From the NCBI GenBank assembly GCA_041675085.1, contig JBAYUN010000001.1, positions 170,364 through 234,363 on the forward strand: a stretch of 64,000 bases of DNA. Direction: 5' to 3'. This DNA comes from Minisyncoccota bacterium (GTDB taxonomy: Bacteria > Patescibacteriota > Minisyncoccia > Phycocordibacterales > UBA9973). Position numbers and translations under genes: made by a program. This document shows positions 4,398 to 61,454 of this stretch, piece by piece (the first letter of the stretch is position 1; every line of letters starts with the position of its first letter). Below the pieces are notes generated by a model. It searched no databases, was not told the origin of the DNA, and was given only the letters and a program-made list of their open reading frames with translations.

Positions 4398-4970
4398 TTA
4401 TCTTCTACCTAATAAATAATCTGATAACTCACCTATCCCTATTTTTTCTTTTGAAGAATATGGAAAAACTCTATGACCGTAAAGCATATCTTCTATTTTC
4501 TTGAGCTGGTTTTTGTATTGGGAATTTTTAATTTTATCTACTTTGTTAGCTACTACGACTATCTCCCTACCTGCTTCTTCAAGAGATCGTATCATGCCGA
4601 GGTCGTCTTTGGTCGGACCTATCTCGCCATCAATAATAACCACAACGATAGGGTCATGATGTGAATCAAAAAGATACCAATACAAGAGCTTGTTGATACT
4701 TTTCCATTTTTCAAAAGAAGTCTTAGCGAAACCGTATCCAGGCAAATCAATAAAATACACAGAATTATTGATTTTAAAAATATTTAATTCTTGAGTTCTA
4801 CCTGGAGTACTACTAGTGCGAGCGAGATTTTTAACTCCAGTAAAAGAATTAATCAAGCTTGATTTACCAGCATTTGATCTCCCAATAAAAGCCACCTGAG
4901 GCACTCCGTCGTCTAGCATATCGTTGCTACCTTTGACTCCTCTTAAAAATACAGCTGATTTAATCTTCAT
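4398..4970 (-). CDS. engB: ribosome biogenesis GTPase EngB/YsxC
   Basis: G1 motif GRSNAGKSSLINSFTG, DLPGYGFAK, VVANKVDK. Confidence 0.8.
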   Translation of the reverse strand: MKIKSAVFLRGVKGSNDMLDDGVPQVAFIGRSNAGKSSLINSFTGVKNLARTSSTPGRTQELNIFKINNSVYFIDLPGYGFAKTSFEKWKSINKLLYWYLFDSHHDPIVVVIIDGEIGPTKDDLGMIRSLEEAGREIVVVANKVDKIKNSQYKNQLKKIEDMLYGHRVFPYSSKEKIGIGELSDYLLGRR

Positions 4971-4995
4971 ATAAATATCATAACAAAAAAGCGAC

Positions 4996-5020
4996 CTTTT
5001 GTCGCTTTTTTAAAAAATCT
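4996..5020. terminator. Rho-independent terminator hairpin
   Basis: aaaaagcgacc-tttt-ggtcgcttttt between engB start side and mscL stop. Confidence 0.5.
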
Positions 5021-5033
5021 TAATTGTTCCAGA

Positions 5034-5414
5034 TTATTTATTTTTTAATAAATCACGAATCTCTTGCAACAATTCTGTTTCTGTTGGACCCGTTGGCGCA
5101 TCGGCTGGTTTTTCTTTTTTCATTTTATTAATCAAAATATTCATAGGCTTAACAACAAAAAAGAATATTGCACCAGCAACCATAACAAAAGAAATTATTA
5201 CATTAATAAAATTTCCATATTTAAAAGTACTACCATTGATAGTAAAATTAAGACTGCTAAAGTCTGGCAATTTTGCAATTGCAGAAATTAAAGGAGTTAA
5301 TAAATCCGCGACCAAAGATGAAACTACCGCACCAAAAGCTGTACCAATAACAACACCCACAGCTAAATCTACAACATTACCTCTTAATAAGAATTGTTTA
5401 AAATCGTTCAACAT
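5034..5414 (-). CDS. mscL: large-conductance mechanosensitive channel
   Basis: MLNDFKQFLLRGNVVDLAVGVVIGTAFGAVVSSLV typical MscL N-terminus, 126 aa. Confidence 0.85.
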   Translation of the reverse strand: MLNDFKQFLLRGNVVDLAVGVVIGTAFGAVVSSLVADLLTPLISAIAKLPDFSSLNFTINGSTFKYGNFINVIISFVMVAGAIFFFVVKPMNILINKMKKEKPADAPTGPTETELLQEIRDLLKNK

Positions 5415-5540
5415 AAAGTTTTAAATTATTTATAATAAATACATTATACACTTTTTTATAAATAAAAAAAGCCCATATCACTTATAAAGTAATACGGGCT
5501 TCGGGGTCAAAACAAAAATTTAAAGAACTTTTTTTAAAAT

Positions 5541-5562
5541 CAGGTCCACCGGCGTGGACCTG
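5541..5562. terminator. GC-rich perfect palindrome, likely terminator of gene 5679..6413
   Basis: caggtccac-cggc-gtggacctg (9-bp stem) followed on minus strand by AUUUUAAAAAAA. Confidence 0.4.
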
Positions 5563-5678
5563 AACTCTTGTAAAAAGAGCGAAAAAAGAGCGATGGGTGC
5601 TTATGTATAAAATATATACTAAATGAAATTTAAAGTCAAGCTTTAGACTCAAAACCATTAATTTGACAAAAAGTATCT

Positions 5679-6413
5679 TTATTTAATTTTTAGATTGACT
5701 ACTTTATTTTCTACAACTTCATAACTAAAATCTCTTTTTTCTTGCACGTGTCCATCTTCATATACCAGAGACCCAGAGTTAATAGCTAAATCCAAATCCA
5801 TAGAGACTACGTAAAATTTCCCACCCAATACAGGAGATACAGGAGAAAGTTCATTGATATTTTTCCACAAGATTTCTTCGACTGCCTCTCTCTCGTCTAA
5901 ATCACTACATGAGTAATCACGCAAAGTAGTAGAATAATCCACCTTTGTTAAATCTTCATAAGAGTAAGATCCATCAGGATTTTCTTTCATAGCTCCAAAA
6001 CCAATACTTGCATCCCCTTCACCAAAGATAATTCTCAATTGAGATTTCTCTGTCCTACCCTCACCTTCACGAGTCCAGACTGAATCTATGGTTCTACTCA
6101 TAGAATACCTATCTACAGGGGTCACAGAACCTTCAAAACTACCCAAAGACGCGTCTTTCTCAGCTGGCAAGATCTTTAGGTATCCTGTCACAGTTTGATT
6201 TGTATTGTCCAAATTCATTCTTAGGGTAAATTTATCATAAAATCCACTTTCTTGTTTTTCTCCAAATTTTGCAAAACAAAGTGATATAGGTTCTACTACA
6301 GAGACTTCTTCTAAAGGCTCATCTGCTAAAGGAATATTTCCTTTATTTTGAAATACAAAAATAGCAACCAAAATTAACAATAAAGCGATAAGCAAATAAA
6401 ATATTTTTTTCAT
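5679..6413 (-). CDS. hypothetical secreted/lipoprotein-like protein
   Basis: N-terminal signal anchor MKKIFYLLIALLLILVAIFVF; no recognised domain. Confidence 0.5.
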   Translation of the reverse strand: MKKIFYLLIALLLILVAIFVFQNKGNIPLADEPLEEVSVVEPISLCFAKFGEKQESGFYDKFTLRMNLDNTNQTVTGYLKILPAEKDASLGSFEGSVTPVDRYSMSRTIDSVWTREGEGRTEKSQLRIIFGEGDASIGFGAMKENPDGSYSYEDLTKVDYSTTLRDYSCSDLDEREAVEEILWKNINELSPVSPVLGGKFYVVSMDLDLAINSGSLVYEDGHVQEKRDFSYEVVENKVVNLKIK

Positions 6414-6441
6414 ACTACTATTATAGTATAATTAGACCCAT

Positions 6442-6930
6442 ATGAAAACAAACAAAGGTTTTATGACAATAATCATAAGTATTATCGTCCTGACTAGTAT
6501 CGGAGGATTTCTATATTATCAAAATACGCAAAAAATAAATTCTACTGATGAGACAAATCTAGATTCAAACTCCACAATATTAATAGAGACTCAAAACTCA
6601 AATCTTGCACCGAAAGAGATTTTTATTAGAAGAATCACAGAGACAAATAATGCTAAAAATTTTGAAGAAGCTTTAGAAGTTATAAAAAAGTACGATACTA
6701 AAATCCAGATAGTGGAAAACAATTATGAAAATGCAAGCCCAGAAAAGAAACAAGCTCTATACACAATACTCCAAGGATTATTCCCTTCGATTGGAGATTT
6801 AAAAAATATTACTGAAGTTATCGAGAACGACAAAGCCAAAGTCACAGCCGAAACAAAAGACGGCGAAATAACTGCAGACTTTATCAAAGAAGAAGGTAAT
6901 TGGAAAATTTCTGACTTGTACGGATTTTAG
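6442..6930 (+). CDS. hypothetical membrane-anchored protein
   Basis: N-terminal TM, 162 aa, no recognised domain. Confidence 0.45.
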   Translation: MKTNKGFMTIIISIIVLTSIGGFLYYQNTQKINSTDETNLDSNSTILIETQNSNLAPKEIFIRRITETNNAKNFEEALEVIKKYDTKIQIVENNYENASPEKKQALYTILQGLFPSIGDLKNITEVIENDKAKVTAETKDGEITADFIKEEGNWKISDLYGF

Positions 6931-6952
6931 AATTTTTCAAAATTCATAAATA

Positions 6953-6992
6953 AAAAAGAGGTTTCGATTATAATTAATCGAAACCTCTTTTG
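6953..6992. terminator. bidirectional Rho-independent terminator
   Basis: aaaagaggtttcgatt-ataatt-aatcgaaacctctttt flanked by T/A runs. Confidence 0.55.
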
Positions 6993-6995
6993 TTT

Positions 6996-7475
6996 TTAGA
7001 TATATTCCTTGCCATTCCAAACAGCAAACCTATATCCTTTAGTGTCCAAGAACTCTTCAAATAAACTAATAGACTTATCCCCAACACCTCTAAAACCTTC
7101 AAATTTTTTACGTTGCCACAATAAAGCTTCTTTTAGTTTTAAGTTTTTATTATTAAAAAAAAGTTCCATTCTGTTACAGAACTGATTGACAGCTTTATAA
7201 CTATCTTTGTTAACATTTTTTACAGTCAACCTGAATTCATCGACAATATCAAGAAATTCTACTAAGCCTGCTCGCTCTAGCATAGAATTAAAATCTGCAG
7301 TTTTTTTCTTAGAAAGTTTTTTATAAAAATTAAAAGTTACCTTTATATGATTAGGTAAATTTGAGTTTGTAAAATATTCTTTCTTTATATCAGCTTTCTC
7401 ATCTAATATAGAAAGTAATTCATCTTTGCTAATACTCACCACGGTAGGCTTTCCTGCTTTCTTACTAACTTCCAT
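6996..7475 (-). CDS. hypothetical protein with helix-hairpin-helix-like C-terminus
   Basis: FEGFRGVGDKSISLFEEFLDTKGY resembles HhH (RpoA-CTD/PolX-like) motif; weak. Confidence 0.35.
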   Translation of the reverse strand: MEVSKKAGKPTVVSISKDELLSILDEKADIKKEYFTNSNLPNHIKVTFNFYKKLSKKKTADFNSMLERAGLVEFLDIVDEFRLTVKNVNKDSYKAVNQFCNRMELFFNNKNLKLKEALLWQRKKFEGFRGVGDKSISLFEEFLDTKGYRFAVWNGKEYI

Positions 7476-7655
7476 TATTTATTCTTTTTTAAAATGTGAC
7501 GAACAATTTATATCATCCACACCATAACACACATACTTATAAAAGTAAAATATGCTTGGATCTTAAGTGGCGAAAACAATACACAAATTTGACTTATAAT
7601 TTAATTATGGTATCATATAAAAGATATTTATTTTGTACCTCAAAACACACAAAAA

Positions 7656-8150
7656 ATGGGAGCAAGCCTAAAATTCAACAAAGACCAAGTGTCAATCGTA
7701 TTTAGCAATGGAAAAGAATCTATTTTCTTTGAAAGCAAAGAAGAAGCTTTAAATGCTTTAATCGATTGTCACCAAAAATCAAAAATCACAGAGCAAGAAT
7801 TGAACGCGATGGCAACAGAAATAATAAACAGTAGTTTAAAATCGGTACTATTAGAAGAAATGAAAAAAGCTCTTGATCAGATGACAATCATAGTTTCAGC
7901 AAAAAGAAACAAGTCTAATGATGTTTTTGCTAGTTTATGCGGTTGTCGAGGTGCAACGGGAGCCCCTCATGCTTATATATATGACGAAGAGGGAAACCAC
8001 ATAGCACCAACTCCATTTTATTCAAAAATGCAGGGATATGCACACTGTGAAGAGTTATTACAAGATGGCATTATCTCAGAAAAAGAATACATTTCTTTAA
8101 AAAGTGAAATAGATTTACTTAAAATTCCTGAATCACTTCAGGACAATTAA
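7656..8150 (+). CDS. hypothetical protein with SHOCT-like C-terminal motif
   Basis: C-terminus GIISEKEYISLKSEIDLLK resembles SHOCT short C-terminal domain. Confidence 0.4.
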   Translation: MGASLKFNKDQVSIVFSNGKESIFFESKEEALNALIDCHQKSKITEQELNAMATEIINSSLKSVLLEEMKKALDQMTIIVSAKRNKSNDVFASLCGCRGATGAPHAYIYDEEGNHIAPTPFYSKMQGYAHCEELLQDGIISEKEYISLKSEIDLLKIPESLQDN

Positions 8151-8164
8151 AACAAATAGCTTGA

Positions 8165-8200
8165 GTTGGAAATTCTACCGACTCAAGCTATTTTATTTAA
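8165..8200. terminator. bidirectional terminator hairpin
   Basis: atagcttgagttgg-aaattctac-cgactcaagctat then tttattt. Confidence 0.5.
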
Positions 8201-8219
8201 TGTGTTTATAAGATCGAAA

Positions 8220-8813
8220 TCACCTACCAGAAAACAATATTATATTCTTCATCAAAAATGCACCAAGCATAGCCAACAAAAGTAAAGTCAGATAAACAGA
8301 CAATATTTCCAAATAAGAGTACGGCACTGTTTTTAACATACCTAAAATAATAGTAGTCACCCAAGAAGTCATAGATATAGCTCCGCTAATCATGACAAAA
8401 CTAGATCTGTCTCTAAAAGTTTTAGATTTTGTAAATTCTATCTCTTGATGCTTTTTCAAATGAGGCAAATGAATAGTATGGAAAATAATACCATTGATAA
8501 AGATAATAACCACAATACTAACTTTTACTAGAAATTTTTGAGAATTAGCATAAAAAACAGGATCAGTATAAAAAAGCAAAATTCCAGATATAATCAATAC
8601 CAATAATCCAGTCCAAACAACACTACCTCCAAGTCTCATAAAACGCAGCTCTTCTTTATTAATAATTCCATCTTTCACTGTAGCAAAAAACATAATATCA
8701 CTCATAAAAGCTCCACCTGCACCTAAAATTGCCCCAAAAACATGCAAAATTAAATAGATAGTTTTGATATCCAAAAATTCGGGTAACATAAATTTATTAT
8801 AACATAAAATCAA
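8220..8813 (-). CDS. hypothetical polytopic membrane protein
   Basis: Several hydrophobic helices; overlaps dinB stop by 4 nt (ATGA). Confidence 0.5.
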   Translation of the reverse strand: MILCYNKFMLPEFLDIKTIYLILHVFGAILGAGGAFMSDIMFFATVKDGIINKEELRFMRLGGSVVWTGLLVLIISGILLFYTDPVFYANSQKFLVKVSIVVIIFINGIIFHTIHLPHLKKHQEIEFTKSKTFRDRSSFVMISGAISMTSWVTTIILGMLKTVPYSYLEILSVYLTLLLLAMLGAFLMKNIILFSGR

Positions 8814-10042
8814 AGCAATTCTAAAATGACGAACCCTTGACTATTTTCATTAGACCTCTTCCCTCCTAGTGAAGCTGCTCTTTTAATTATATTATTCCCG
8901 AACTTCTTCCTGATCTTGTCGGCGGTTGTCTCTATTGCTAGATTTTTAATTGTTTTCTCTTGTTTGCCAAATAGGTCGAGCGGGGCTTGTTCTTCGCGAA
9001 TTAAATTATGGAGCATGACTCCCGTAGAACGAATTCTCCCCTTTTTAGATACAAGTTTGGGGAGTTCAGTCTCAATCTCCCCCAAGATTTCTCCCGGATC
9101 ACTAGTATATTGTGCCAATTTTACTTCACCAAAATAATATTTGAATTCAGTATTTTTTACAAAGAATGAAACTTTATTGGAAAGAAGACGGAGAGCTCTC
9201 GCCTCTCTGCATGCATACTCAACATTCTCCGATATCTCCCTTTGTATTATTTTTATCTCCGAAGAAGGAGGACGAAAGGTCGCAGTAGATTGAATACTTT
9301 TTTGGTCGCGGGGATCCGTATGACTTTCAACTTTCAATATCGACTCTCCGCCAAGCTCTTTTTTTAAAACCAAAAGCGGTGCAAAGAAATCCCTTTCAAT
9401 TTTATTTTCTGAAAAATTCACAAAGTCATAAGCTGTTTGCATCCCTAACTGTCGTAGCTTAGGGACAGTCCTCCCGCCAATACCCCAAATATCGTCTATA
9501 GGAGTCGCCTTGAGCGCTCGAGCCTCGTCTTCTTTAGAAAGTAACATTACGAGCCCATTAGGCTTCTCGAGTTTAGAAGCGAGCTTAGAGAGGGCTTTGG
9601 TCCTACCGAGTCCTAGAGAATAGCTGACATTGAGTTTGGTTTGTATTTCTTTTTTTAACTCTATTAATAAGTCTCTCTCATTTTTAAAATATCCGACTTC
9701 CCAAGGTTGCACCAAAGCAAAACATTCATCGATACTGTACTCCTCGATTTCAGAAAAGTATGAGGAAAGTATCTCAAAGAGCCTTTTAGCAATATCCCGA
9801 TACAAGTCAAAATGGTGATCCAAGATTACGACTTCTGGGAAAAGTTTTTTAATCTTAAAAACCGGCATACCGCGAGTGATCCCTAGAGCTTTCGCTTCCA
9901 TACTCATAGCTACAGCAATACCTCTATCGGCGCCTACGATGACCGGCTTACCTCGGAGTTCGGGACGAGCCGTAAGTTCACAACTAACAAAGAAAGAATC
10001 TCCATCTATGTGCAGATATAGATTGTCTGATTGATTTTTCAC
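8810..10042 (-). CDS. dinB: DNA polymerase IV (Y-family)
   Basis: LHIDGDSFFVSCE...GKPVIVG catalytic N-terminus; 410 aa. Confidence 0.85.
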   Translation of the reverse strand: MKNQSDNLYLHIDGDSFFVSCELTARPELRGKPVIVGADRGIAVAMSMEAKALGITRGMPVFKIKKLFPEVVILDHHFDLYRDIAKRLFEILSSYFSEIEEYSIDECFALVQPWEVGYFKNERDLLIELKKEIQTKLNVSYSLGLGRTKALSKLASKLEKPNGLVMLLSKEDEARALKATPIDDIWGIGGRTVPKLRQLGMQTAYDFVNFSENKIERDFFAPLLVLKKELGGESILKVESHTDPRDQKSIQSTATFRPPSSEIKIIQREISENVEYACREARALRLLSNKVSFFVKNTEFKYYFGEVKLAQYTSDPGEILGEIETELPKLVSKKGRIRSTGVMLHNLIREEQAPLDLFGKQEKTIKNLAIETTADKIRKKFGNNIIKRAASLGGKRSNENSQGFVILELL

Positions 10043-10180
10043 CTAGTTATTCTACATCAAACGACTCAAATATGCTTGGTTGCAAAATAGGTTAAATACT
10101 TCATAGTAAATCGAATTAGCTTTATTATGGAGCATGTAAAAATAAAAAAGGTAACCTATAGAATAAGTTACCTTTTAGTT

Positions 10181-10375
10181 TTAAATATTTTTTTGAAAAT
10201 GCTTATAATTGTGAATTAAGCCTTTTCTTTTTGCTTCACGAATAGACATAGGTCTACCGCTCGGATAATTATGTTGAGAAACAACCCTTGCGTCAGGGTC
10301 TCTAATAAAAGCTATAGCATCCTCGAACATTTCATAAAATGTTACTCCAAATAAAAATATAATTAATTGTTTCAT
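10181..10375 (-). CDS. small hypothetical protein (64 aa)
   Basis: ORF preceded by promoter-bearing repeat copy 1; hydrophobic N-terminus. Confidence 0.3.
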   Translation of the reverse strand: MKQLIIFLFGVTFYEMFEDAIAFIRDPDARVVSQHNYPSGRPMSIREAKRKGLIHNYKHFQKNI

Positions 10376-10460
10376 GATTAAATATTAAATTGTTAAAAAA
10401 TATTTATTAAGTTCTCTTAATCTCCACTCCTCAAAAGACGGACAAAGAAGAAACTAAGAG

Positions 10461-10546
10461 AACCTAACAAAATTTAACAATTAAATACAGTATCAAAGAA
10501 CTCTACTATTTCAAGTAGAATAACATATTTTAGTATTTTGTCAACT
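10461..10546. repeat. direct repeat copy 1 (promoter/5'UTR module), weaker similarity extends to about 10395
   Basis: About 92% identical over about 85 nt to 13183..13267; contains on minus strand TTGACA-16nt-TATTCT and hairpin tctact-atttca-agtaga. Confidence 0.7.
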
Positions 10547-10648
10547 ATAGAAATGTTCGAATTAGCATTTAAGTGAAATAACAAAAGGCTGAACGTTTTC
10601 ACGAACAGCCTTAATAAATTCTATACTATTTTAACTACTATATAGTTA

Positions 10649-11110
10649 TTACTTTTTACCATTACGAGGTTCGAGTAGTATGTTTGGCGCATCCACCTCG
10701 CCAGTATATACTTTTGTATTACTTTTAGGGTTTTTTGAGAAAAGTTCTAACGTAAATATAGCAGATCCACGTGGCCCTAAAGTTACCATAATTCTAAAAC
10801 CAGTCCAATTATTTTTTTTATCTACATTAATAATATCAATTAAAAAATTAAATAACTTTTCAGTCTTTGTTTGACGAATAATAACTTCGATAGCATAATA
10901 TAATGGCCCTTGACCTAAGTATTCATTGAAACAAAAATAAACATGGTCAGGATTTAATCTATCATGGTCTACAGTGATAAGGAAATCATCTTCAGAGTAA
11001 GTATCTGGAAAATTAAATTGAACCAGAAACATATACCGGGCTTTACCGAATCCTCCAAGTTGTGACGGTCTATAAGGTTCAGCAGGATAAACCTTGGATA
11101 AGTTTTGCAT
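10649..11110 (-). CDS. hypothetical protein (153 aa)
   Basis: No recognisable domain; preceded by repeated element copy A. Confidence 0.45.
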   Translation of the reverse strand: MQNLSKVYPAEPYRPSQLGGFGKARYMFLVQFNFPDTYSEDDFLITVDHDRLNPDHVYFCFNEYLGQGPLYYAIEVIIRQTKTEKLFNFLIDIINVDKKNNWTGFRIMVTLGPRGSAIFTLELFSKNPKSNTKVYTGEVDAPNILLEPRNGKK

Positions 11111-11227
11111 TTTTTATATTTTTTAATTTAAAAAATATGTCTAAGGACAATATCAAATAATCTATACTATATTTTTAGAAAAATAGCAAGTTATTTAACA
11201 GAATAATTCTCACAGAGAGAACAATCA

Positions 11228-11320
11228 AGTTCACAACATTCACAAAGCATGCCCCGCACTAAGCTTTGCTTTAGTGCTAGGGTTCACGAGCGGGCTTGAT
11301 GTTTGGATTTCAGAACTTTT
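11228..11320. repeat. repeated intergenic element, copy A
   Basis: gttcacaacattcacaaagcatgccccgcactaagctttgctttagtgctagggttcacgagcgggcttgatgtttggatttcagaactttt; near-identical to copy B. Confidence 0.7.
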
Positions 11321-11363
11321 AAAGAATCCTGAATTAGTTTTAATTAGTATTAAATCAATTAAA

Positions 11364-12020
11364 TTATTTCCTATTAATCACAATTTCTGAGACTTCCATA
11401 TTTTTAGGTAAATCCAAAATCTGTTTTAATAAAACAGCCAAATCCTCAGGTTTCATCCATTCATCTCCTTTCTCTGTATTGTCTATACCCGTTGCTTTTT
11501 CAAAAAGTTTTGTTTTAAATCCTCCTGGACAAAAACTAATTATCCTATTTGGCTTGCCTTTGAATTCTTCTTGTAAATTTTTAGTGAATCCCCTAACAGC
11601 CCATTTTGAAGCTCCGTAAACAGCTTGATCTACATAAGCTTTCAATCCTATAGTAGATGCTACATTTACAATATCAGTTTTGTCTTCAATAATTTTTTTA
11701 TATAAATTTGATATTAATAATATTTGAGATTTAACATTAGTAGACATTAAACGTTTTATTTCATCTTCAGTAATTTCTCCTAATTTCTGCACAGACAAAA
11801 CACCCGCGCAATTGATTATTGATTCAATAGGTTCATTCATTTTAAGAATCTCATCCGATGCTTTTTTAATTTCTTCTCCTTCACGCAAAGAAACACAAAT
11901 ATTAATATCAGCGTACTCTGATTCTCTTCTAGAAATATTTACAACTTTTTTACCTGCTTCTTTGTATAATTTTGCGACTTGTTTTCCAAGCCCATCACTT
12001 GCTCCTGTTATTATTATCAT
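11364..12020 (-). CDS. short-chain dehydrogenase/reductase (SDR) family oxidoreductase
   Basis: Start set to MIIITGASDGLGKQ (TGxxxGxG Rossmann motif); track ORF extends 11 codons further upstream; YGASK catalytic motif. Confidence 0.75.
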   Translation of the reverse strand: MIIITGASDGLGKQVAKLYKEAGKKVVNISRRESEYADINICVSLREGEEIKKASDEILKMNEPIESIINCAGVLSVQKLGEITEDEIKRLMSTNVKSQILLISNLYKKIIEDKTDIVNVASTIGLKAYVDQAVYGASKWAVRGFTKNLQEEFKGKPNRIISFCPGGFKTKLFEKATGIDNTEKGDEWMKPEDLAVLLKQILDLPKNMEVSEIVINRK

Positions 12021-12063
12021 ATGAGTATTATACCAAAAATACCTTAAATACAAATTTTTTAAA

Positions 12064-12183
12064 GTTCACAACATTCACAAAGCATGCCCCGCACTAAGCT
12101 TGCTTTAGTGCTAGGGTTCACGAGCGGGCTTGATGTTTTGACCCAGTCATTTGAAAGTAACTGGTTAAAATTTCAGAACTATT
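12064..12183. repeat. repeated intergenic element, copy B (with about 31-nt hairpin insertion)
   Basis: Same 76-nt core as copy A, then inserted cagtcatttgaaagtaactgg hairpin, then shared tail tttcagaact. Confidence 0.7.
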
Positions 12184-12199
12184 AATTAGCAGTGACAGC

Positions 12200-12586
12200 C
12201 TAAATACCTTTTTTTATATATAAAGACAATAAATAAATAGGACCAGAGAAAGATAAAACTGCAGACAAAAATAATGAATTAATTCCCAAAACTACTAATA
12301 ATGGGCCTAAAATCATTGTTCCATTAAATAAAATTGTATAACCACTTTTACCAACATCATGAAGCCTACGAACGCTCAAAGCAATAATAGGAGTGATAAC
12401 TAATAAAAAGTAAATTGTACTTAAAATACCACGGCCAGGTATTATTTCAATACCTATAAAACTATCAATTAAACCAAGAATAAAAGTAATGATAAAATTA
12501 AAAAGAATAAAATACCAAAATTCAGGACGACTAGCCTTTCCACTAAAAACTGCATAATTCTTTAAACCGTTAAAATAATGTTCCAT
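12200..12586 (-). CDS. DUF805-family inner membrane protein
   Basis: GKASRPEFWYFILFN... and RRLHDVGKSG motifs typical of DUF805 (YhaH-like). Confidence 0.6.
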   Translation of the reverse strand: MEHYFNGLKNYAVFSGKASRPEFWYFILFNFIITFILGLIDSFIGIEIIPGRGILSTIYFLLVITPIIALSVRRLHDVGKSGYTILFNGTMILGPLLVVLGINSLFLSAVLSFSGPIYLLSLYIKKGI

Positions 12587-12666
12587 AAAATTAAAATAAA
12601 TATTAATACTATAAATTATATATCACAGTAAAAACTAAAACAAACTAAAATATTCTTAATAAATGT

Positions 12667-12707
12667 GCGAGCTTGAGGTTTGGATTTCAGAACTTTTGAG
12701 GAATCAG
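12667..12707. repeat. partial copy C of the repeated intergenic element (3' portion only)
   Basis: gcgagcttgaggtttggatttcagaacttttgaggaatc vs gcgggcttgatgtttggatttcagaacttttaaagaatc. Confidence 0.45.
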
Positions 12708-12804
12708 TTATTATTAAAATTTGTCTGAATGATTTTAGAACTAACTAAAAATAAAAAATCACCTACTAAATTTCGGTGATTTACTCTCTAAAAGAGTTTT
12801 GGAT

Positions 12805-13116
12805 TTAACTTACAAAAGTTGCCCAAAACTGCATTTGTGTTAAAAGTTCCTTCTTTTGTATTTCTACAGAATACAACCCTGGGATCATGCCATGTTTTTT
12901 AAAAAGTGTAAGAAAAGTAATTTTAAAAGTCTCTTCGTCAATTACTTTTACCTCTTTAATAAAAATTTCCTTATTCTCTGTATCTTCAAGTGAAGAATTA
13001 CCCATATTTTCAAAATTTATAATTTCGATACTAATAGGTATATTTTTAGCAAAAGATTCAACAAAACTATCTATAGTTTTGTTAGTTTTCTTAAAATTAA
13101 TAACTAAATTATTCAT
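12805..13116 (-). CDS. hypothetical protein (103 aa)
   Basis: ORF immediately downstream of promoter-bearing repeat copy 2. Confidence 0.4.
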   Translation of the reverse strand: MNNLVINFKKTNKTIDSFVESFAKNIPISIEIINFENMGNSSLEDTENKEIFIKEVKVIDEETFKITFLTLFKKHGMIPGLYSVEIQKKELLTQMQFWATFVS

Positions 13117-13182
13117 GAAAATGATTTTAATTGTTTTAAAAATATTATTGATTCACCTCTAACTCCGTAAAGAAATAGGGGT

Positions 13183-13267
13183 GAACCAACAACATTTAAC
13201 AATTAAATACAATATAAAAGAACTCTACTATTTCAAGTAGTATAACATATTTTAGCATTTTGTCAAC
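13183..13267. repeat. direct repeat copy 2 (promoter/5'UTR module), weaker similarity extends to about 13128
   Basis: On minus strand TTGACA-16nt-TATACT; abuts 3' end of tRNA-Trp. Confidence 0.7.
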
Positions 13268-13269
13268 TG

Positions 13270-13340
13270 CGGGCGATGAGAGAATCGAACTCCCGCCAAA
13301 GGTTTTGGAGACCTTCGTTCTACCACTAAACTAATCGCCC
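13270..13340 (-). tRNA. tRNA-Trp (anticodon CCA)
   Basis: rc reads gggcgat..aaggt-cTCCAaa-acctt..gggagttcgattctctc-atcgccc. Confidence 0.85.
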
Positions 13341-19060: not shown

Positions 19061-20563
19061 CTAAATCATAGGCTCAGCCTCGGTTTCTTTTGTTTCTTTT
19101 TGATTTGAGAGATTTTGTTTTTCTTCTTCTCTTTCTTTTCTGTCTCCTTCTTCTGTACGTCCGGCACCTTTTATCGCAGCTTTTTCTTCAGCACTACGAA
19201 TGATAGTAGACTCTTCTTCTTGGATCAATCTCTGAGCGTCACCTTTTGAGATAGCGTATTTACGACGTGAAGCGGCTAGTATCTCATCTCGATACGAAGT
19301 ATGAGTAGGAGGTAGTATACGTAAAGTCTCTGCTGAGAAAGGGTCATAACTCTCTCCGTCGATAGTCATCTTGATATAGAATTCTCCTACAGCAAGGTTA
19401 ATCATATCTTTGACTCCGAAAAGAGGATCGAATTCAGGTTTTAAACGAGTCGCGTCTTCTCCTCCTACACGGAAAGAAATAATAGATCCGACGTTACCTA
19501 GGATAGATTGATAAATCTTTGGTTGGATCTGACCTACGTATTGGTGAGCCATGGTGAGGTTCAATCCGTATTTACGAGCCTCTGATAGAATATTTTCAAA
19601 AGTTTGAGTCACGACGTTTTGGAACTCGTCGACATAAATATAAAAATCTTTACGATCTTTCTCTAGGATATGGGCGCGCTCCATACCGGCTTGCTTGATC
19701 TTGGTCAAGAACATAGATCCAAAGAAAGAAGAATTCTCTTCACCGATTTTACCCTTAGAAAGATTTATCAAAATAATTTTCTGCTCGTTCATCAAAGTAC
19801 TAATATCTATTTTATTTTCTTTTTGACCGAAAATATTGCGGAGCAGTGGGTCAGACAAGAATTGCCCGAGTTTATTCACGAGAGGGATGATCGCGTCAGT
19901 ATCAAATTTCTCAGACCAATCCGCGAATTCGATAGCGAAGAATCTTTTAACCATATCGTCTTGGATGTATTCCACGACTTTCTGACGATAATTTCTATCA
20001 GTAAGCATAGATATCATTCCACGCATCGTCGCATACGGATAGTCTAGAAGCGCCAAACAAGTAAAACGAAAAACGTGCTCCAAACGAGGAGTCCAGTTGG
20101 CACCGAATTGCTTTTGGAAAACTTCAATCAAACCTTGAGTTAATTGAAATTTGAACATAGGGTCGACGTTCGCCAGAGGATTGAAAGAAGCTGGGAAATT
20201 CACGTCAGACGGATCAATAATACAAACGTCTTCAATACGTTCTTTTGGAATATAATCTAGCATTGAGTCTATCACATCTCCGTGAGGATCGATAAGACAA
20301 AGCCCGTGCCCATAAGTGATATCTTGACGCAAGAAAAGCTCGAGGAGTTTAGTCTTACCTACTCCAGACTTCCCTATGATATACAAGTGACGACGACGGT
20401 CGACTCTCTTAAAACCAAAAATGAATTTCTTCTCTTCCAGAGATGCAACGTAATTAGTCCGCCCAATAAAAGAAACCTCCTCAGGTTTTACCTTTCCATA
20501 GACTGGAAGCTCTGGTGGTGGTGGACCGTATTTAATTATTTGAACTCGATTTGGTTTCACCAT
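19061..20563 (-). CDS. TrwB/TraD/VirD4-like (type IV coupling protein family) P-loop ATPase, 500 aa
   Basis: Walker [11 protein letters not shown] followed by CLIDPHGD (compare TrwB GATGTGKS...VIVDPNGD), Walker [10 protein letters not shown], then [13 protein letters not shown] block as in T4CP C-terminal half. Confidence 0.55.
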
Positions 20564-59267: not shown

Positions 59268-59981
59268 TTATATCGAGTTATTTTCTCCTAATACAGATTG
59301 ACTAGAATTTGTATTAGAAGTTGAACCATTATTGGGTGGCAAACTAGGGTCAGTATTTGTACTAGGAGTACTATTTACAGAAGGATTTATTATAGGATCA
59401 AAACCAGAAGTAGTATTGGTATTTGTCGTATTAGGAGGAGGTATAAAAGGATCTGAAGTCTCAATAGGATCTAGATTGTCGTCAATGGGTGTAACTCCTA
59501 TCGGATCAACCTCTACAGGATCAAATTGAGTGCCTGTACCAGTTGTTGTACCTGTAGTAGTTCCAGTACCTGTTCCCGCTCCTGAACCCGTCCCTGTATT
59601 TGTCCCCGTACCAGGAGGATTGAAAGGAATCGTAGGATTGTAATCATTTAGTTGTACAGTCCCCGCTTCTGGATCAATCCCCGTGATATTTAAAGTATTT
59701 AAAACTAAGTTTAGAATACCCCAAACACCCATCATAACAGTCAAACCAATAACTCCATAAAGCATATGATTCTTGCCATTAGTGCGCTCTGTTTCATTAT
59801 CAGCATTTGTTAAGAAAACAAAAACTCCATAAAGAAAATAAGCTATACCAATAGCAAAAAGCAATCGAATCAAAGGATTCACTATCACAGAATTAAAATT
59901 ACCTAAAAAGGAATTAAAATCTGCGTATGCTATATTGGGTAAAAATATTGAAAATAAATCCATAATTTTTATTGTGGACAA
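59268..59981 (-). CDS. TrbC/VirB2-like pilin paralog 6 with Gly/Thr/Pro-rich C-terminal tail
   Basis: Shared two-helix core AYFLYGVFVFL...ERTNGKNHMLYGVIGLTVMMGVWGILN; tail GTGTNTGTGSGAGTGTGTTTG. Confidence 0.45.
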   Translation of the reverse strand: MSTIKIMDLFSIFLPNIAYADFNSFLGNFNSVIVNPLIRLLFAIGIAYFLYGVFVFLTNADNETERTNGKNHMLYGVIGLTVMMGVWGILNLVLNTLNITGIDPEAGTVQLNDYNPTIPFNPPGTGTNTGTGSGAGTGTGTTTGTTTGTGTQFDPVEVDPIGVTPIDDNLDPIETSDPFIPPPNTTNTNTTSGFDPIINPSVNSTPSTNTDPSLPPNNGSTSNTNSSQSVLGENNSI

Positions 59982-60388
59982 TCTACACCAGGAGATTCAA
60001 TACAAGGAATAGAGATTTCAGTATCAGCAACATCTAATCCAACGAAGTTTTTGATGAAGTTAACCAATCCCCAAACAGATACGATAACCATCAACGCAAT
60101 AAGACCGTTGATCATAGCACCCCTTCCTTCAGTCTTTGCATCTTCATCACGAGCAATAGCATAGTGAATAACACCCCAGATAAAGTAGATAACTGCAAGA
60201 GTTATTAATACTGGAATAACATTATTTAAAATTGTAGCAATTCTACAAAGTAGAACGTTGAAAGCGTTCGGGTCTGGAATAGCGAAACAACCAGTTGCTT
60301 GCGCAGAAGCTAGTTGAGGAGCAAGAAAAGTAGCGAACATAAACACAGAACTAACAATCAAACCTAAACTCATTAATTTTTTCTTCAT
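59969..60388 (-). CDS. TrbC/VirB2-like pilin paralog 5
   Basis: Signal peptide ...LASAQA; core AVIYFIWGVIHYAIARDEDAKTEGRGAMINGLIALMVIVSVWGLVNF. Confidence 0.5.
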   Translation of the reverse strand: MKKKLMSLGLIVSSVFMFATFLAPQLASAQATGCFAIPDPNAFNVLLCRIATILNNVIPVLITLAVIYFIWGVIHYAIARDEDAKTEGRGAMINGLIALMVIVSVWGLVNFIKNFVGLDVADTEISIPCIESPGVDCPQ

Positions 60389-60530
60389 ATTTATATTTTT
60401 ATTTATTATTCTGTATTTTGTAATACAGAAAGTTATTTTTAATAATTTATAATTTCTATTTGATTCGACCTTTTTATATTCCTAAAGATTAGGTTAATTA
60501 AATTATATCATACCTATATGTGAAATAAAG

Positions 60531-60920
60531 CTAATTTGTGAATACCTGTGGAATAATACTTATATTTAATCCAAAAGTTCCCCCGAGAATAGCTACCAAC
60601 CCCCAAACAGATACCATCACAGTCAGAGCAATAATCCCCCAAACCATGAATTGCTTGCCCTTTTCACGTTTACCTTCGTCGGCTTCGTTTAGGACGTATT
60701 GCATGACTCCATACAGAAATAGTACGAGAGCTAAAGCAAAAATAAAAGGTACTACAGCCGTATTAATAATACAGATCACATAGTCTACTAGATTATTAAA
60801 TTTAGGGTTTGCAGACAGATTACAACCACCTCCTGTACCTTGCGCATTAGCTAAATAGGGACTGAAAACAATCAGTGTAAAGAAGAGTACAAGGAATAAA
60901 TTTTTAAAAATATTTTTCAT
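60531..60920 (-). CDS. TrbC/VirB2-like pilin paralog 4
   Basis: Signal peptide ...LANAQG; YVICIINTAVVPFIFALALVLFLYGVMQYVLNEADEGKREKGKQFMVWGIIALTVMVSVWGLV (compare VirB2 VNNICTFILGPFGQSLAVLGIVAIGISWMFG). Confidence 0.5.
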   Translation of the reverse strand: MKNIFKNLFLVLFFTLIVFSPYLANAQGTGGGCNLSANPKFNNLVDYVICIINTAVVPFIFALALVLFLYGVMQYVLNEADEGKREKGKQFMVWGIIALTVMVSVWGLVAILGGTFGLNISIIPQVFTN

Positions 60921-60923
60921 AAA

Positions 60924-61454
60924 TTAATTTGGTGTTACTGAGGGTATTATCCTAGTATTGATACCAAAGGTCCCGCCAAGGAGATTTACCAACCCCCAAA
61001 CAGATACCATCACAGTCAGAGCAATAATCCCCCAAACCATGAATTGCTTTCCCTTTTCACGTTTACCTTCGTCGGCTTCGTTTAGGACGTATTGCATGAC
61101 TCCGTACACAAACATGACTAATGCTAGAGAGAATATCAAAGGAACTACTGACAGGTTTAAAATACAACTCGTATAGCTTATAACATCTTGGATTTTAGGA
61201 TTAGTAGCTAAAGAACAACCTACACCACCTCCTCCAGACCCAGACCCACTGCCTCCACCAGCACCTCCTCCTCCATTACCACTCCCGTTATCTCCTCCAT
61301 AATCACAACCTTGTGCTAACCACTGAGCACTACCTACTTCTAAATCAGCACATTGAGCTTGTGCAATATTTGGAGTTGTAGTTAGAAAGACTGAAAAAGA
61401 AAGGACGAACAACATTAACAAAGGTAACAAATTTTTTTTAAATATATTCTTCAT
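60924..61454 (-). CDS. TrbC/VirB2-like pilin paralog 3 with Gly-rich insert
   Basis: Core about 120 nt near-identical to paralog 4; N-domain GGDNGSGNGGGGAGGGSGSGSGGGGVGC with 4 Cys. Confidence 0.5.
   Translation of the reverse strand: MKNIFKKNLLPLLMLFVLSFSVFLTTTPNIAQAQCADLEVGSAQWLAQGCDYGGDNGSGNGGGGAGGGSGSGSGGGGVGCSLATNPKIQDVISYTSCILNLSVVPLIFSLALVMFVYGVMQYVLNEADEGKREKGKQFMVWGIIALTVMVSVWGLVNLLGGTFGINTRIIPSVTPN

Follow-up and report, generated by a model that had tools for sequence, protein, structure and literature searches.

Putative gene cassettes stacked at the 3′ end of tRNA-Trp in a Minisyncoccota bacterium

Organization of the tRNA-Trp locus

We studied a 64-kb stretch of the genome of a Minisyncoccota bacterium (assembly GCA_041675085.1, contig JBAYUN010000001.1, positions 170,364 to 234,363), hereafter called the window, and in it a segment of five small genes next to the tRNA-Trp gene, which is probably a stack of gene cassettes. 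The window has a GC content of about 33%, and the array genes and tRNA-Trp all lie on the minus strand, as do the array features listed below. Read along this strand, the order is alr, rpmG, a terminator, tRNA-Trp (13340..13269), ORF103, a gene for a DUF805 membrane protein, a gene for a short-chain dehydrogenase/reductase (SDR), ORF153, ORF64, and dinB. The tRNA-Trp(CCA) gene (13269..13340) was identified by ARAGORN and by Rfam (69.8 bits); we propose its 3′ end, ...GAGTTCGATTCTCTCATCGCCCG(CA), as the left arm of attB type (B arm). Of the 8.9 kb separating tRNA-Trp from the Vut1 gene, the first ~3.1 kb are occupied by the five-cassette array, which spans essentially all of the 2.9-kb interval singled out in a preliminary description of this DNA.

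ORF103, the gene of cassette 1 (12805..13116), has no family match and seven distant homologues among 1.84 billion representative proteins. It is followed by a terminator-like hairpin with a T-run (12752..12783), seen in the sequence and its fold and missed by the consensus terminator scan. Cassette 2 carries the DUF805 gene (12200..12586; Pfam PF05656, E=3e-20) and cassette 3 the SDR gene (11364..12020; Pfam adh_short, E=4e-36). Cassette 4 carries ORF153 (10649..11110), for which 5.8 billion proteins yielded three matching sequences only, those of the window itself and of the related loci L003 and L069 (related loci are given by their L numbers). The terminator-like hairpin 3′ of ORF153 (10583..10612), kept in both relatives, was likewise missed by the consensus scan. 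ORF64 in cassette 5 (10181..10375) is an orphan with itself as the sole database match, and past the intrinsic-terminator-like hairpin behind it (10146..10176) nothing more of the array can be recognised. The five minus-strand open reading frames (ORFs) and the two family assignments agree with the preliminary description. Searches of the cassette proteins against PADLOC, PHROGs, and NCBIfam gave no defence or phage function, only generic DUF805 and SDR matches. No Shine-Dalgarno sequence was visible at any of the five genes on inspection of the sequence. An extended -10 element (tggTATAAT) ends 6 nt 5′ of the ATG of the SDR gene (window 12021-12053), and its transcript is probably leaderless or nearly so.

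Repeat A as a predicted promoter and leader head

The near-identical direct repeats reported in the preliminary description were recovered as an 81-nt pair, here called repeat A (10466-10546 and 13188-13268, 94% identical). Exactly two copies occur in the window, and none was found in 100 shuffles. As noted before, weaker similarity extends beyond the repeat; it takes in the 5′ untranslated region (5′UTR), the start codon, and the first ~8 codons of the gene behind each copy. No base separates the right copy from tRNA-Trp (the repeat ends at 13268 and the tRNA starts at 13269). In this copy, the head of cassette 1, the nhmmer match covers 13209..13267 (E=3.7e-16), with the -35 hexamer TTGACA at 13266..13261 and an extended -10 TGtTATACT ending at 13239, followed by the conserved CTACTTGAAATAGTAGAGTTCTTT. 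In the left copy, the head of cassette 5, the match covers 10487..10545 (E=2.3e-17), with TTGACA at 10544..10539 and TATTCT ending at 10517. Both heads carry near-consensus, TG-extended sigma-70 promoter sequences, as had been proposed: TTGACA-16-TATACT on the right matches 11 and TTGACA-16-TATTCT on the left 10 of the 12 consensus positions. They are among the six best regional matches (first and joint second), in AT-rich DNA where 26 promoter-like matches were found against 18.4 expected. The small hairpin tctact/agtaga is also present as described.

The conserved core of A is ~60 nt long and consists of TTGACA, 16 nt, TG with a TAtTCT-type -10, and then CTAyTTGAAATAGTAGrGTTCTTTGATATTG. Conservation is as strong in the spacer as in the promoter hexamers; A may have spread recently, or a further constraint may act on it. 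Downstream of the core, the leaders are of three sequence types, each with a long hairpin. Both A 5′UTRs of the window fold as hairpins of roughly 30 bp: the one between head A and the ORF103 start at 13125..13204 has a minimum free energy (MFE) of -34.6 kcal/mol (z=-6.8), and the one before ORF64 at 10386..10486, which has a consensus fold, an MFE of -39.8 kcal/mol (z=-5.7). Comparison of the ORF103 leader hairpin with three relatives revealed eight pairs altered on both sides with pairing retained; all eight two-sided changes are in one sequence, and block replacement of an inverted repeat would look the same as stepwise compensation. From these features we infer that A is a portable expression head, made of a TG-extended sigma-70 promoter, ~25 conserved transcribed nucleotides, and a long leader hairpin. 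The earlier suggestion of a family of duplicated expression modules is essentially right for this repeat.

Repeat A precedes eight unrelated genes, two in the window, five in L003, and one in L069. In 1.19 Mb of related sequence, all eight copies were inside such arrays, seven of them directly after GCCCGCA, and a role as a genome-wide promoter does not agree with this distribution. The same numbers bear on the idea that A is a small dispersed mobile repeat with an outward promoter, of the miniature inverted-repeat transposable element (MITE) or Correia-like kind, that landed here twice by chance. Some 60 conserved nucleotides with a promoter, followed by a long inverted repeat, would be expected of such an element. 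However, the only two copies in 64 kb are both in the array, the placement at GCCCGCA junctions is exact, and the conserved core is not bracketed by terminal inverted repeats or target duplications. Neither the A nor the E pattern (see below) matched any viral contig. We regard a chance landing of this kind as scarcely credible.

Cassette tails, junctions, and grammar

The second component of the array is E, a tail element of ~64 nt ending in ...AAGTTCTGAAATCCAAACATCAAGCCCGCA, with a second conserved box ~35 nt upstream. Its terminal GCCCGCA equals the last bases of tRNA-Trp plus CA. E always ends in GCCCGC followed by A, T, or G, and a new head stands immediately after it. There are three copies in the window, nine in L003, two each in L068 and L069, and one in L021, with weaker copies in L011, L013, and L028. 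The loose form of the attP-arm (P-arm) pattern yields many chance matches in GC-rich outgroup loci, and of its hits only those with the full E-like layout were used.

The tail of cassette 1 is an E at 12666..12723 (nhmmer E=3.4e-13) ending in ...AAGTTCTGAAATCCAAACCTCAAGCTCGCA, directly after which the next cassette begins. Cassette 2 ends with a variant, E′ (12124..12188, E=0.006), in which E carries a hairpin insert of ~30 nt and ends in CATCAAGCCCGCT; the same variant terminates the Nudix cassette of L003. The tail of cassette 3 (11290..11353, E=2.8e-15) also ends in ...CATCAAGCCCGCT. Two of these tails are followed by a head of a different kind, Br. At cassette 3 (12062..12123) it consists of CGTGAAC, a 35-nt hairpin insert, and TTTGTGAATGTTGTGAACTT, and repeat alignments place a second long-form copy with the 35-nt insert at cassette 4 (11227..11289). 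The short form of Br directly follows tRNA-Trp in L021. The tail of cassette 4 is truncated: a remnant of the distal box of E, aaatgctaattcgaac, is left at 10555..10570, the other ~40 nt of E are missing, and homology to L003 stops here. A full E stands at this position in L069.

E and Br together account for a second, GC-richer repeat family (11227-11353, 12062-12188, and partially 12666-12723) that occurs nowhere else in the window. The preliminary description took these repeats for upstream modules of the inner genes; by their layout they are E/Br cassette junctions, not promoters. Nor do the two A copies bound the segment, as had been thought. They are the 5′ heads of two of the five cassettes, and the boundaries are formed by E and the tRNA 3′ end, with GCCCGCA common to both. 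A DUF805-type riboswitch was considered for the GC-rich repeat around the DUF805 gene and rejected: Rfam gave no support for it, and the repeat is a cassette junction. In the window region and the L003 array, the tRNA alone passed Rfam 15 at gathering and permissive thresholds, other hits being chance-level hairpin matches; repeat A, its leader, E, and Br had no covariance-model match.

The resulting grammar of the window is tRNA / A-ORF103-E / unique head-DUF805-E′ / Br-SDR-E / Br-ORF153-(E deleted) / A-ORF64. A cassette is composed of a head, one gene (sometimes two in relatives), often a terminator, and an E tail. After E, heads of four kinds are found: A, Br (CGTGAAC..TTTGTGAATGTTGTGAACTT), an element of 165-180 nt, and unique sequence. 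The 165-180-nt head, seen only in relatives (L003), has as its own last 16 nt an exact copy of the tRNA 3′ end. Every junction has E or such a copy, except for the one deleted tail. Exact 16-nt copies stand at internal junctions of L003; the window has E only, which merely resembles the tRNA 3′ half. RNAalifold of 14 E copies found no consensus pairs. Because E lacks a consensus fold, it would be neither a folded attC site nor a terminator, and fits a putative protein-binding site in duplex DNA.

Three further observations concern these elements. The 35-nt insert of both Br heads gives AAGTTCACAACATTCACAAAGCATGCCCCGCA on the plus strand (window 11227-11258 and 12062-12093), an inverted E-like arm facing the true E. 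The 165-180-nt element follows tRNA-Trp in several lineages (L003 11578-11757, 14511-14689, and 16865-17044; also L036, L028, L041, L068, L038, and L033). It comprises a terminator hairpin, GGGCGATAGCA, hairpins, an antisense T-arm copy (GGAGGAATCGAAAG), and the exact tRNA 3′-end copy, and has no Rfam match; pairing of its 5′ end with its 3′ end is conceivable, as in the acceptor stem of tRNA-Trp, and the element may thus be a mini-cassette or a tRNA-like RNA. L002 (Logan SRR6484325 contig), assembled independently from the same strain, starts at window position ~11256, inside the Br/E junction repeat upstream of ORF153, as fits a repeat-induced assembly break or strain heterogeneity.

Variable gene content at the site in relatives

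With Alr as the anchor, 65 loci were collected from species-representative genomes. The order ddl-alr-rpmG-tRNA-Trp is kept in ~45 metagenome-assembled genomes of Paceibacteria/Nomurabacteria, none of which has the five genes beside tRNA-Trp. The only homologue of any of them in the anchor loci is ORF153, ~8 kb downstream in L003. Empty sites exist as well: the Vut1 gene begins 2-3 nt past the tRNA in L004 and L019, and miaA follows the tRNA in L015 and L029. The tRNA-associated accessory islet suspected in the preliminary description is borne out by these comparisons, and neither of the two observations that it named as refuting (the repeat at many unrelated promoters, or the five genes in identical context in relatives) was made; its overall interpretation was partly supported. 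In the closest relative, L003 (Alr 90% identical), tRNA-Trp is followed by an 8.5-kb array of at least eight different one- or two-gene units. Compared across these loci, gene content at the tRNA-Trp 3′ end is variable, and the site is a hotspot in this lineage of Paceibacteria, a group of the candidate phyla radiation (CPR).

Cassettes are shuffled with precise junctions. The ORF153 cassette has the same composition in the window, L003, and L069 (Br head, gene, terminator, and E tail), and its similarity between genomes stops at the junction. On the right it is followed by A-ORF64 in the window, by the gene of a large serine recombinase (LSR) in L003, and by a Br cassette with genes for a 137-aa protein and an S51 peptidase in L069. 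On the left it adjoins SDR in the window and Nudix in L003, while the L069 contig begins inside the cassette. The first cassette of L013 holds a homologue of the L003 cassette gene for a 191-aa protein, and the remaining cassette genes are unique or nearly so. In L013 (11569-12650), the same head of ~30 nt (ACAACAAGCACAGGACAG.TTAATGCTG) occurs after tRNA-Trp and after an E-like site 1.08 kb downstream, bracketing the cassette with the gene related to that of L003.

A large serine recombinase family at the tRNA-Trp 3′ end

In L070, L073, and L074, a full LSR (Resolvase, Recombinase, and zinc ribbon domains) directly adjoins tRNA-Trp at its 3′ end, as does a remnant in L020. In L074, alr and ddl lie beyond the tRNA as in the window. 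The preliminary description saw no integrase; this holds for the window, in which tblastn detected no LSR, and fails for the relatives, where one lies at exactly this site. Full-length homologues have 573 aa, and their genes end inside the reverse strand of tRNA-Trp; in at least five loci the LSR gene overlaps the att site. Examples are L003 19847-21022, L070 10001-11722, L073, and L074 (proteins P0004-P0123). One of these proteins, P0033, is intact and shares 96% identity with the L003 LSR. The L003 gene forms the distal end of the array and converges on it, and its last codons are the reverse strand of E.

The family comprises at least 676 homologues, and C-termini were compared in the 120 best. 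Most of these 120 end in ...AGDxGIEPPPxVLETxVLPLN, the translation of antisense tRNA-Trp. A minority (L071) end in ...EWNT..KWN..., the antisense translation of an intact attP. The AGDxGIEPPP terminus would mark the integrated state of the LSR. As the gene ends in its own att site, the last ~10-20 residues differ between the integrated and unintegrated forms. The LSR DNA of L073 and L003 is 97.3% identical up to ...TGCGG, after which the tRNA follows in L073 and E in L003, the break falling within CCGCA. Because near-identical LSR DNA is joined to each of them, E and the tRNA 3′ end appear to be alternative partners at one crossover point.

The LSR also bears on two readings that invoke a tyrosine enzyme. 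One is an integron-type array lacking its integrase (a cluster of attC sites lacking integron-integrases, CALIN), in which a tyrosine integron integrase acts on folded single-stranded attC sites. The same-strand, mostly one-gene, and mostly orphan cassettes have the look of it, as does a conserved 3′ element at whose very 3′ edge the crossover falls, the sequence beyond being unrelated. Yet the 14 E copies yielded no predicted hairpin, no RYYYAAC/GTTRRRY cores were found on reading the E sequences, and the cassettes have predicted promoters of their own (near-consensus in the heads, an extended -10 at SDR). Moreover, the recombinase at the site is a serine enzyme. No tyrosine recombinase was present among the genes around the window array or in L070, L073, and L074, the rest of the genome not having been searched. 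We consider a CALIN very improbable.

The other is tandem accretion of tRNA islands by an unseen tyrosine integrase, with E and the 16-nt copies as displaced tRNA 3′ fragments (Islander-type) and the LSR a mere neighbour. Tandem islands at tRNA genes are well known (PMC4383910); E is similar to the 3′ half of the tRNA (T-arm/acceptor), and the copies at internal junctions of L003 match the tRNA 3′ end exactly. Against this, E is too diverged for a displaced functional 3′ half, and its near-identity across genomes whose Alr proteins share only 60-90% identity is a sign of selection acting on E itself. The examined loci showed no tyrosine integrase, and the overlap of the LSR gene with the site in at least five loci speaks against a chance neighbour. 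Accretion of this type seems improbable to us.

Three observations concern the surroundings of the LSR. In L070/L042, two GCCCGCA repeats enclose an 8-kb island that has SIR2 and DUF87 genes; in L070 (1950-11730), where the flanking repeats read TGCGGGC, it includes SIR2_2, DUF87/HerA-like genes, and a trypsin-like protease. The SIR2_2 and DUF87/HerA-like genes may represent an anti-phage system. In the L070 lineage, tRNA-Trp is inverted relative to rpmG.

Half-site geometry

Serine integrases have the motif bound by the zinc-ribbon domain 5 bp nearer the centre in attB than in attP (PMC3783163). The same offset separates the arms described here. The P arms of the L070 attR (GTGTTCCATTCTAATCTTTTAAAGCCCGCA) and the L071 attP (GTGTTCCATTCCAGGTTTTCACAGCCCGCC, GTGTTCC...AGCCCGC) share with E (AAGTTCTGAAATCCAAACATCAAGCCCGCA) a GTTC at -28..-25 and the terminal AGCCCGC. 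In the tRNA arm, GTTC stands at -23..-20. Counted as AGTTC, the motif occupies -29..-25 in E versus -24..-20 in the tRNA, 5 bp further from the junction in E. Because this offset matches the geometry of serine integrases, the layout of E is putatively that of an attP-type arm and that of the tRNA an attB-type arm. In the short-form E/Br junction, ~56 bp lie between AAGTTC and GAACTT, and by its size and ends the junction looks like a complete attP. These half-site roles are assigned by layout. A symmetric right half-site was sought within head A, where inspection showed nothing convincing.

A model of cassette stacking and the evidence that weighs on it

Taken together, the observations make it fairly probable, in our judgement, that the segment is a stack of five same-strand gene cassettes at the tRNA-Trp 3′ end that was built by an LSR and is now partly decayed. 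The cassettes would be moved in trans by an LSR of the family that inserts at the tRNA-Trp 3′ end, an enzyme that we infer from its place in relatives. E would serve as the attP-type left half-site and the tRNA 3′ end as the attB-type left half-site, with strand exchange within GCCCGCA. Repeated insertion beside the tRNA would stack the cassettes in the way that staphylococcal cassette chromosome (SCC) elements stack at rlmH, and head A would give each cassette that carries it an expression signal of its own. As the window array is decayed and has no recombinase, it may be a fossil or may rely on an LSR encoded elsewhere.

The wider proposal is more tentative, and we hold it to be possible but somewhat short of probable: that CPR/Paceibacteria possess an integron-like capture platform using an LSR instead of a tyrosine integrase. 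One-gene cassettes with a promoter/leader head and an attP-type tail would be stacked and shuffled at the tRNA-Trp 3′ end, supplying accessory genes to tiny genomes, and the LSR C-terminus would be rewritten on integration since the gene ends inside the att site. The model is built on comparative evidence from ~6 genomes.

Several findings weigh against this interpretation. The 64-kb window holds neither an LSR nor another recombinase, the gene table lists none within ~10 kb on either side of the segment, and the 529-kb contig of the window is absent among the 120 best LSR matches. The LSR gene of L003 is frameshifted. The array in the window has suffered damage: cassette 4 has lost its E tail, both Br arms are split by a 35-nt insert, and one E reads GCTCGCA. 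Its distal end is undefined, and a further 5.8 kb without E motifs separates the tRNA from Vut1. Only ~6 genomes carry E, and a scan of JGI metagenomes with the E pattern gave a single contig, L068. The right arms next to E are heterogeneous, and A, Br, and unique heads share no evident right half-site. Canonical serine integrases recombine attP with attB only, and relaxed pairing has been reported for Ccr enzymes. Stacking at the attL left by a first insertion would need such relaxed pairing rules or another enzyme.

The strongest competing account is one of homologous exchange between functional signals at 3′ and 5′ ends. In it, the array arises by local duplication and homologous recombination with no dedicated recombinase, A being a promoter/5′UTR duplicated in place and E a shared 3′ signal (for transcript ends, processing, or tRNA mimicry). 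The lack of a recombinase in the window agrees with it, and A and E are 85-100% identical between cassettes, enough for exchange. E is located in the 3′UTR, after or replacing the terminator, and the L002 assembly of the same strain breaks inside the repeat. This account is countered by the fact that E ends on the exact end bases of tRNA-Trp with every junction right after them, and by the 97%-identical LSR DNA that joins the tRNA or E with a break within CCGCA. E also matches the layout of bona fide P arms of the LSR family, 5-bp offset to the tRNA included, and has no conserved RNA fold. Homologous exchange is in our view unlikely, and we favour stacking by an LSR.

Comparison with known systems

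The closest likeness is to SCC/SCCmec. According to two sources (10.1101/336396; PMC11470126), SCC composite islands arise by LSR insertion at the 3′ end of one gene, with tandem stacking and recombinase-less PsiSCC units. Insertion by an LSR at the 3′ end of a conserved gene, tandem units, repeated att-derived delimiters, and trans-dependent units are common to both systems, and the same sources describe accessory and defence cargo in SCC. The present arrays differ in that the target is a tRNA gene, not rlmH, and the units measure 0.6-2 kb with mostly one gene, compared with 3-60 kb. They further differ in the portable promoter/leader head shared by many units, in the CPR host, and in the LSR 3′ end overlapping the att site; the system is known here from sequence alone.

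With integrons and CALINs, the arrays share small, same-strand, mostly orphan cassettes of one gene, a conserved 3′ recombination element, and content that varies between close relatives. In contrast to integrons, no tyrosine IntI was seen here, there is neither a folded attC nor a common Pc, every cassette would bring a predicted promoter of its own, and a tRNA gene serves as the platform in place of attI. The att sites of serine integrases (Listeria A118-type LI integrase, Bxb1, and phiC31) resemble those proposed here in the outer motif lying 5 bp nearer the crossover in attB (PMC3783163) and in the ~56 bp of E/Br. The many different right arms found here are, however, unexplained by the rule of attP with attB, and the half-site roles follow from layout only.

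Islands at tRNA genes (Islander; CIME-type) likewise target a tRNA 3′ end and show direct repeats of it, and they too stack in tandem and include non-autonomous units. They use tyrosine integrases, measure from kilobases to tens of kilobases, and carry true displaced tRNA fragments, whereas here a conserved non-tRNA E is combined with a serine recombinase. Correia and ERIC elements are likewise short conserved modules supplying a promoter and a 5′UTR hairpin to unrelated genes; repeat A differs in not being dispersed, since it occurs solely at the cassette junctions of tRNA-Trp arrays. It is the combination of a serine recombinase, a tRNA target, one-gene units, and a shared promoter/leader head that sets the arrays apart from SCC, integrons/CALINs, and tandem tRNA islands. 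In the literature on CPR with integrons or cassettes and on serine recombinases of Patescibacteria with tRNA, we found no description of such arrays.

CPR genomes are very small, and the gain and exchange of accessory genes in them is little understood. If the proposed model is true, a large uncultivated share of bacterial diversity would have a compact site-specific mechanism of gene capture, and the cassette-array principle of integrons (tyrosine recombinase, folded attC) and SCC (large units) would be extended to one-gene serine-integrase units. In the LSR family, the tRNA-based target is compact and well defined and attP has many natural variants, which may be of interest for serine integrase engineering. 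Head A is a candidate strong portable promoter/leader for these organisms.

Neighbouring features of the window

No recombination scar was found upstream of Vut1, on the far side of the insertion. The region between the array and Vut1 (window 4398-10042) contains dinB, six unknown ORFs, MscL, and a GTPase gene, none of which is at this position in the relatives. This dinB-to-GTPase block has no E motifs or junction scar and may represent older insertions or a rearrangement. About 6 kb past the tRNA on the alr/ddl side, a minus-strand gene (window ~19061-20563) encodes a 500-aa protein with weak matches to TraG/VirD4 coupling proteins, and a similar gene adjoins the LSR in L071. Direct repeats of 296 nt with 77% identity and a spacing of 393 nt, and a 43-nt motif present four times, were observed at window 59710-61220, where they are probably tandem paralogous genes.

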